Of a DNA stretch of 64,000 nt, positions 1-449 are shown one piece after another. A model generated the notes under the pieces. That model was not told the DNA's origin, did no database searches, and worked only from the letters and a program-made list of their open reading frames with translations. The position numbers were made by a program, and so were the translations under genes. Source of the stretch: Mustelus asterias (Eukaryota); assembly GCF_964213995.1 (NCBI RefSeq), contig NC_135805.1, positions 145,204,001 through 145,268,000 of the forward strand. The letters run 5' to 3'. Position 1 is the stretch's first letter. Every line of letters starts with the position of its first letter.

Positions 1-449
1 GAGGAGAATGTGCAAACTCCACACAGACAGTGACCCAAGCCGGAAATCGAACCCAGGTCCCTGGAGCTGTGTAGCACAGTGGTGCTAATCGCTTCTTGGC
101 CTTTTGGCCAAGATCAAGTGTAGTTATGCGGAGGCTGCACTTGGTTGAGGTCATTGGGTTACATTGAAGCTTCATATGTTTCATATGAAGCAATTTTTAA
201 AAGCGGTATCTCGGCCTTTTGGCTAAGATGCAAATGAGATCAAGTCTTGGAGGAGGAATTGCTTTCCCTCCTCCAATCAGCTTGGCTCATGTAGATCAGG
301 CCCAGGACAGGGTAAATGGTCGCTTGCCCTGTCTTGCCAGCCTGGATCGGAAATGTCTCAACTTGTTGAGACTCTGAATTGGACTTGATTTGATTGAATT
401 GGAAAAGTATTTAAAAAAATTTTAAAAACCACTGTGCTACCGTGCCGCC
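1..449 (-). mobile_element. HE1-like tRNA-derived SINE (5' head part), inserted in H2B and itself interrupted by the U2-headed element at 88-~426
   Basis: 1-87 plus ~427-449 are the reverse complement of the SINE head seen at 900 (ggcggcacggtagcacagtggttagcac...gggttcgatt...). Confidence 0.85.
88..426 (+). mobile_element. U2 snRNA-headed SINE-like element, copy A
   Basis: Starts atcgcttcttggccttttggccaagatcaagtgtagt (U2 5' end, 2 mismatches). The body is nearly identical to 11598-11929 and ends in an A/T-rich tail. Confidence 0.85.

Follow-up and report, generated by a model that had tools for sequence, protein, structure and literature searches.

A U2-headed retroposon of the shark Mustelus asterias, probably mobilised by the LINE Keno, with a predicted fold over most of its U2 head

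Introduction

The 64,000-nt stretch of DNA analysed here (the window; Mustelus asterias, contig NC_135805.1, positions 145,204,001 to 145,268,000 of the forward strand) contains, close to its start, a sequence that begins like U2 snRNA and can fold back onto this beginning. Which kind of element is this, how did it obtain a U2 head, and why is the head paired? A preliminary description saw selection for a compact RNA that keeps a U2-like 5' end while hiding the parts that could interfere with splicing or, alternatively, a structured U2-mimic ncRNA.

The element is a U2-headed, SINEU-like retroposon of about 335 nt. With a probability of roughly 0.6, we consider it to be a SINE that depends on the LINE Keno, with source copies inside U2 genes and an RNA in which a Keno-like rod covers most of the U2 head.

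The element and its copies

The features of the two copies discussed here, A and B, are listed in Table 1. Copy A extends beyond position 372 to an A-rich tail that ends at about 427. We take the motif at 228-235 to be an octamer motif, both in name and in its presumed role.

Table 1. Features of the U2-headed element in the window
Feature	Position	Strand	Remarks
Copy A, subfamily G1	88..427	+	inside an older, oppositely oriented repeat; without a clear target duplication
Head, host U2 snRNA nt 1-37	88..124	+	35/37 identical in copy A
First loop, swapped between subfamilies	125..133	+	
Anti-U2 arm, pairing with U2 nt about 10-38	134..162	+	2x2 internal loop facing U2 A23-A24
Hairpin	169..191	+	10 bp (young subfamilies) or 5 bp (older subfamilies)
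Partner segment of the 5' end (88-94)	201..207	+	
Second copy of U2 nt 7-27	209..229	+	folded as native stem I
Perfect octamer motif (candidate)	228..235	+	in 166/179 copies
Two-part hairpin, hypervariable apical loop	234..290	+	
Two-part hairpin, hypervariable apical loop	294..348	+	contains the compensatory pair 299-342
Short terminal hairpin	355..372	+	
3' end and A-rich tail	373..427	+	last ~35 nt Keno-3'-like in some copies
Copy B	11598..11929	+	within an older interspersed repeat
Copy B target-site duplication, left	11586..11597	+	12 bp
Copy B target-site duplication, right	11930..11941	+	12 bp

U2 is the only family that Rfam finds in the element. Copy A matches model positions 1-192 with 54.1 bits, which is over the cut-off (true U2 genes score 178-190 bits). 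The full-length homology implied by this alignment was rejected, as BLAST against the host gene returns only nt 1-37, nt 7-27 and non-significant scraps; it is the head on which the Rfam match rests. When the 3' body was aligned locally to U2 nt 40-191 (40 tests, 300 shuffles each), two subfamilies gave p values of 0.007 and 0.01 with the second U2 variant described below, and all other values were about 0.05 or worse; the possible likeness with p 0.007, the best of the 40 tests, spans U2 nt 105-182. A classical Pol III SINE with a tRNA, 7SL or 5S head was also rejected, because the head is U2 and T runs are present internally (101-104 and 194-198 in copy A).

An internal 15-mer of the element has 5,527 exact matches in the 3.68-Gb genome, which is a lower bound on the copy number; the reversed control has none. 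The copies are about 300-335 nt long and end in an A-rich tail. Genome searches gave 214 matches, of which 183 were unique and 179 near full length; four short fragments were kept out of the alignment. These 179 copies are the best matches to five queries plus their neighbours and are thus not a random sample. They comprise seven subfamilies of at least four copies (mean divergence 1.9-4.6%), two pairs and 28 singles. The consensus tests omit the singles and the two pairs, which are included in the A>G count below. Changes in the decaying copies show a CpG excess. The head is anchored in 168 of the 179 copies, 54 of these 168 begin exactly at U2 nt 1, and the U2 match reaches nt 37-40 in six of the seven subfamily consensuses. 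Target duplications of at least 7 nt flank 86 of 168 copies, a set that was not chosen for U2 context.

Keno, the probable partner LINE

True U2 genes form arrays on contig C24. An 8-kb U2 repeat contains a Tx1-type LINE (ZCCHC3-like ORF1, AP endonuclease, RT, zf-RVT), the 3' end of which abuts U2 nt 39. The available portions of two publications give U2 nt 39 as the 3' target of Keno (PMC6136364; PMC4640811). The LINE of this repeat (L081, G000:C24:44845000-44854999) has the Tx1-type ORF1 and ORF2, the AP endonuclease and the 3' junction at U2 nt 39 that characterize Keno. The repeat unit of 8,035 bp (at 44.81-44.94 Mb) consists of a U2 gene and a Keno-interrupted U2 copy and is repeated in tandem about 16 times. 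Its Keno ORF2 is disrupted by an inserted repeat and by frame changes.

The element and Keno often occur together. Among 20 further Keno loci, 18 have a head that starts at U2 nt 1-12, and many have ordinary target duplications. Keno in this genome also inserts widely outside U2 genes. The element directly adjoins Keno at 8 of these 20 loci (4 independent), and Keno pieces lie in the immediate flank of 7 of 168 element copies. On five unplaced contigs (L188, L191, L192, L193 and L200), the element is found on both sides of one Keno; these are likely one amplified composite.

The Keno 5' end is predicted to fold over U2 nt 5-29 (z -3.5), and its 2x2 loop at A23-A24 is the one also predicted for the element. 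The distal part of the arm at 134-162 is identical to the Keno 5' arm at 10-12 of 18 positions, which is partly forced by pairing, and both arms depart from a perfect complement in common positions. This points to common descent or to a shared shape that is recognised. In an older Keno copy (L084), the arm is missing through a deletion. The short likeness of the tail to the Keno 3' end has p values of 0.003 and 0.01 in two copies and of 0.38 in copy A. If the element were an internally deleted, SIDE-like Keno, both of its ends would derive from the LINE; the comparison gives the partly forced arm identity and tail p values from 0.003 to 0.38. The Keno head stops at nt 35; that of the element continues to nt 37-40 and thereby contains the branch-point sequence in full, and an additional helix over nt 30-38 is predicted. 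Taken together, the element is likely copied by Keno (Tx1) enzymes.

Insertion into U2 genes at the Keno site

A search for the pattern of an element tail followed by U2 from nt 39 onwards gave eight matches (control: none). Seven of these are element copies, at six loci; the eighth (L093) was dropped, as no element copy is present. Where the U2 array ends, one copy occupies +1 of the main U2 promoter and is followed by degenerate U2 39-55 and then by a truncated Keno. In a second U2 variant, 15 start sites carry the searched motif, and these are occupied by the element at +1 (7), by Keno (4) or by an intact U2 (4). Retroelements hence occupy 11 of the 15 detected start sites of this variant (L091, L215-L217; G000:C21:28.05-28.08 Mb), which has a 448-bp unit and an altered last loop and is about 86-90% like the main U2 beyond nt 38. 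Among the 168 copies found by similarity alone, none has U2 nt 39 onwards downstream; therefore, insertion at the U2 site is rare.

In two dispersed copies, L213 and L218, the target duplication encloses upstream spacer of the second variant (93 and 36 nt, respectively), and in both the spacer is preceded by a U2 5' fragment within the same duplication. Because dispersed copies carry the U2 upstream spacer between target duplications, their templates must have been U2-resident copies, fused at a U2 start site. The RNA of L213 and L218 began upstream of +1, and therefore, read-through may drive some of the source copies, rather than the snRNA promoter itself. The same spacer is present over 92 nt in a Keno copy (L214). 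The two stretches, L213:1148-1240 and L214:1423-1514, are on different contigs; each starts 92-93 nt before the variant's +1 and includes a stretch that is conserved between both U2 promoters. They have an upstream start in common, and the spacer is possibly a portable promoter.

The element likely borrows the promoter of the U2 gene. Its head is the stretch of 37-40 nt with which the host gene itself begins, and each fusion with a U2 gene at the Keno insertion site supplies it anew. Thus, an invariant head needs no selection for U2 function, and the selection for a U2-like 5' end that had been suggested for the element is not needed.

The life cycle that we propose is as follows. The Keno endonuclease would nick the U2 gene between nt 38 and 39, and the tail would prime reverse transcription. 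The cDNA end, being complementary to U2 nt 1-37, would anneal to the upstream target, so that the element lands exactly at +1. Copies at +1 would be transcribed as U2 nt 1-38 plus the body and would act as source elements. Most daughters would arise elsewhere through relaxed targeting, as seen for Keno here, and would be promoterless. The rod would be retained as a copy of the Keno 5' RNA structure and would also take the U6-pairing and branch-point segments out of the spliceosome's reach.

Predicted fold of the element RNA

The pairings that the preliminary description had listed by eye were borne out (window coordinates). Segment 112-124 pairs with 134-146 at 13 of 13 positions (4 G-U), and the 5' end (88-94) pairs with 201-207 at 7 of 7. 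The further hairpins are fully paired: 169-178/182-191 (10/10), 247-256/267-276 (10/10), 303-314/325-336 (12/12) and 355-362/365-372 (8/8). The pairing of 234-245 with 280-290 holds with a one-base bulge (5+6 pairs in the MFE structure), but an ungapped alignment gives only 7 of 11. A direct comparison of the sequences confirmed that copy B differs from copy A in the first loop and that its changes at the equivalent of 234-245 preserve the pairing. The second stem-I copy is identical to host U2 nt 7-27 (21/21, BLAST); it is predicted to retain its native fold and to be no more masked than in U2.

The fold of 88-372 has a predicted energy of -131.4 kcal/mol versus -85.5 +/- 4.7 kcal/mol for 200 dinucleotide shuffles, none of which is equally stable (z -9.72). 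A compact predicted fold is common to all seven subfamilies. In the predicted folds, native stem I of the head is supplanted by the long rod: its probability is at most 0.005 in all seven subfamily consensuses, in copy B and in the promoter-fused copy (copy A: 0.29). The cost of opening segments of the head was computed for ten element sequences and compared with two host U2 variants. Opening nt 33-37 costs 7.4-14.3 kcal/mol in all ten element sequences versus 0.8-1.7 in U2, and opening nt 20-28 costs 11.0-14.4 versus 6.3-8.4. For nt 3-11, the values are 3.4-5.9 in the element and 4.5-5.7 in U2. Thus, the claim that the RNA masks its spliceosomal segments is supported for the branch-point segment, which is predicted to be buried, but not for nt 3-11, which are no costlier to open than in U2.

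The preliminary description had made its case depend on covariation or on a bias of conservation towards stems. The bias is present: among six subfamilies, 36 of 198 paired versus 35 of 85 unpaired positions vary (p 8e-5; structure from copy A alone, the 4-member group being left out). An alignment-derived count (19/182 versus 62/137) was discarded as circular and replaced by this one. Loops have been replaced and stems retained across all seven subfamilies, and all subfamily changes in the first rod are in the partner arm. Covariation is weak. Changes in stems preserve pairing in 14 of 23 cases versus 41% for private non-CpG mutations (p 0.043), and in 7 of 13 cases when restricted to helix interiors (p 0.25). 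Strong covariation across subfamilies was not found; the only clean compensatory change is a G-C to A-U replacement at 299-342. Private changes disrupt stems more often than they preserve them (334 versus 221).

Why is the head folded?

The rod might exist mainly because an exposed U2 head would pair with U6 and branch points or would bind SF3b, which would harm splicing. We regard this as unlikely, even though the costly opening of the branch-point segment in every element sequence and the confinement of first-rod changes to the partner arm agree with it, as does the extra helix, which lies exactly over nt 30-38 and is without counterpart in the shorter-headed Keno. Against it speak the native fold of the second stem-I copy and the opening cost of nt 3-11, which does not exceed that in U2. 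A perfect complement would also be expected, but the arm matches at 9-10 of 18 positions and retains Keno-like mismatches. The Sm site consensus includes a G, which is lacking at the single-stranded U run of the element, so that its RNA may not enter the U2 snRNP. Since Keno has a similar rod, recognition by Keno proteins or plain inheritance explains the fold as well as masking does. That the burial of the head was selected to protect splicing is a conjecture.

It is tempting to speculate more broadly. LINE and SINE may both capture snRNA promoters via U2 nt 1-35 to 1-39 and disarm the captured piece with an antisense arm. The arm of the SINE would then have been extended over the entire branch-point sequence under selection against splicing interference, some daughters would take the U2 proximal promoter to new sites, and ADAR edits made in the folded RNA would have become fossilised in genomic copies. 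We hold this wider scheme to be doubtful as a whole.

A less probable explanation of the rod than masking is that it is a by-product: the U2 head was inverted by fold-back during reverse transcription, a new head was added by template switch, which left sense and antisense U2 side by side, and the rod persists only because any compact structure aids stability. Antisense U2 arms can arise during insertion, as is seen from an inverted U2 head at the 5' junction of one copy among the 179 (L020) and in the 3' flank of another (L053). Extra U2 5' fragments precede copies L011, L059, L213 and L218. The weak covariation and a hairpin length that differs among subfamilies would also be in accord with a by-product. 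However, a rod with the identical internal loop is present in Keno, and loops were swapped yet stems kept in all seven subfamilies.

Tandem copies and the octamer motif

Head-to-tail tandems are very common: 48 copies among the 168 belong to one, as do 18 of the first 100 genome matches listed. They join different subfamilies around one target duplication and are also mixed with Keno (L005, L015, L019, L026, L029 and L052). The tandems reflect re-use of one site. In 20 tandems, the octamer is located 172-207 nt upstream of the next copy's +1. Together with its perfect conservation in most copies, this would suit a self-promoting element, in which the octamer of the upstream copy serves as distal element for the next copy, the U2-resident copies being only occasional guests. 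We consider this very unlikely: the octamer spacing follows from the length of the element, no perfect octamer was found upstream of either host U2 variant (600 and 260 nt examined), and the daughters that carry spacer indicate U2-resident sources.

A host-encoded, structured U2-mimic ncRNA acting in splicing control, to which the invariant U2 head, the stable predicted fold, the Rfam U2 score and what may be a decayed U2 likeness in the 3' half might be ascribed, is the least probable of all, being contradicted by thousands of dispersed copies that have tails and target duplications and have decayed by 1.9-4.6% from their subfamily consensuses with an excess of CpG changes, by the preponderance of stem-breaking private changes, and by the lack of a single conserved gene copy among those seen.

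A>G changes on the sense strand

When the 179 copies are compared with their nearest subfamily consensus, A>G changes on the sense strand (268/12,583) are more frequent than T>C changes (167/16,515). In the U2 head, for which the ancestral state is known, the numbers are 26/1,062 and 10/1,906. Private changes alone show no more than a twofold excess (89/10,054 versus 59/13,425). A restriction of A>G to the first rod was considered and rejected, as the excess runs over the whole element. Some copies have several such changes: one copy has 8 within nt 23-61, one has 16 overall, and three copies have 5-8, mostly within nt 23-73. The excess is absent from Keno bodies (58/14,154 versus 88/11,548; 15 loci) and from subfamily G3 (4/2,345 versus 7/3,325). 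A>G changes occur at 44 per 1,000 following U, compared with 16-19 following any other base, which matches the neighbour preference of ADAR. The sense-strand excess suggests that the folded RNA was edited by ADAR before reverse transcription. Another possible cause is that the RNA paired with antisense or inverted copies.

Relation to known elements

The closest described elements are SINEU-1, -2 and -3 of crocodilians. According to the accessible text of PMC4494074, these have a U2-derived head, a length below 500 bp, an A-rich tail and internal oligo-T; snRNA pieces were added repeatedly at the 5' end, tandem copies lie around one target duplication, and mobilisation is by a Keno-related Tx1 LINE, some of these LINEs having snRNA heads. 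The shark element likewise has an snRNA head and is a short, non-coding, dispersed and A-tailed family with subfamilies; mobilisation by a Tx1-clade LINE is inferred from shared targets. In contrast to SINEU, as far as it is described in that text, the shark element has the Keno site of U2 genes as its target, it has copies fused at U2 +1, and the head is predicted to be buried by an antisense arm. The crocodilian families also differ in host and in their preference for Mariner-N4_AMi; here, the host is an elasmobranch, and insertions are in U2 genes and diverse sites. The H2A histone of the window groups with proteins from skates and sharks, as expected of an elasmobranch host.

With Keno, as described in the available portions of PMC6136364 and PMC4640811, the element shares the 3' junction at U2 nt 39 and the U2 head and, in this genome, a predicted 5' rod that has an identical internal loop, some resemblance over the last 35 nt in part of the copies, and common and adjacent insertion sites. 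Unlike Keno, it is devoid of ORFs, its head extends to nt 37-40 instead of 35, and no Keno likeness was detected in the body beyond arm and tail. Utopia inserts at the same U2 site but is described in the available part of PMC4640811 as having a restriction-like endonuclease, whereas the LINE found here has an AP endonuclease.

R2 and R2 SIDE in 28S genes offer another parallel. The available text of PMC3414825 and PMC3774820 describes a non-autonomous partner of a site-specific LINE, the use of a host-gene promoter, and exact 5' junctions, which are postulated to result from the annealing of host 5' sequence. The shark element differs by its target (U2, not rDNA), by a partner with an AP endonuclease that is not of the R2 type, and by thousands of off-target copies. 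A ribozyme would be unnecessary for it, because its RNA would start at U2 +1.

The resemblance to U2 snRNA and its retropseudogenes (RF00004) covers nt 1-37 and the second nt 7-27. The element is, however, without stem IIa/IIb and without a canonical Sm site, and has a shared body of about 270 nt that is non-U2 or heavily diverged and has subfamily structure. A functional U2 snRNA variant would have stem IIa/IIb, an Sm site, stems III-IV and an accessible branch-point segment; it was rejected, as BLAST finds only the head pieces, a canonical Sm site is lacking and the branch-point segment is predicted to be buried, the 3' half showing a possible U2 likeness.

A search of mainly open-access literature turned up no description of a U2-headed SINE from cartilaginous fish; the family may already be catalogued, for instance in Repbase or Dfam. 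The accessible text of PMC5499810, on shark SINEs, has no occurrence of "U2 snRNA". In the part of the SINEU paper available (PMC4494074), the class is known only from crocodilians, and it is left open how an snRNA-headed SINE without an internal promoter is transcribed. Here, an snRNA-headed family is present in a second lineage. Some of its copies are young, its partner LINE can be identified, and candidate source loci lie at U2 +1. As these loci are fused at +1, the promoter question becomes directly testable. What the LINE and the SINE have in common is a predicted 5' structure and not chiefly the 3' tail. For annotation, thousands of U2-headed copies over the Rfam U2 cut-off will be mistaken for U2 genes.

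Other features of the window

The window also contains a histone gene cluster with 3' stem-loops (452-780, 2310-2766, 2979-3330, 14864-15212, 17162-17513 and 25332-25377). An H2B-like copy at 452-725 lacks a start and immediately follows the repeat that is interrupted by copy A. G-rich minisatellites with 17-bp and 28-bp units are present at 31892-32959 and 34099-34322.
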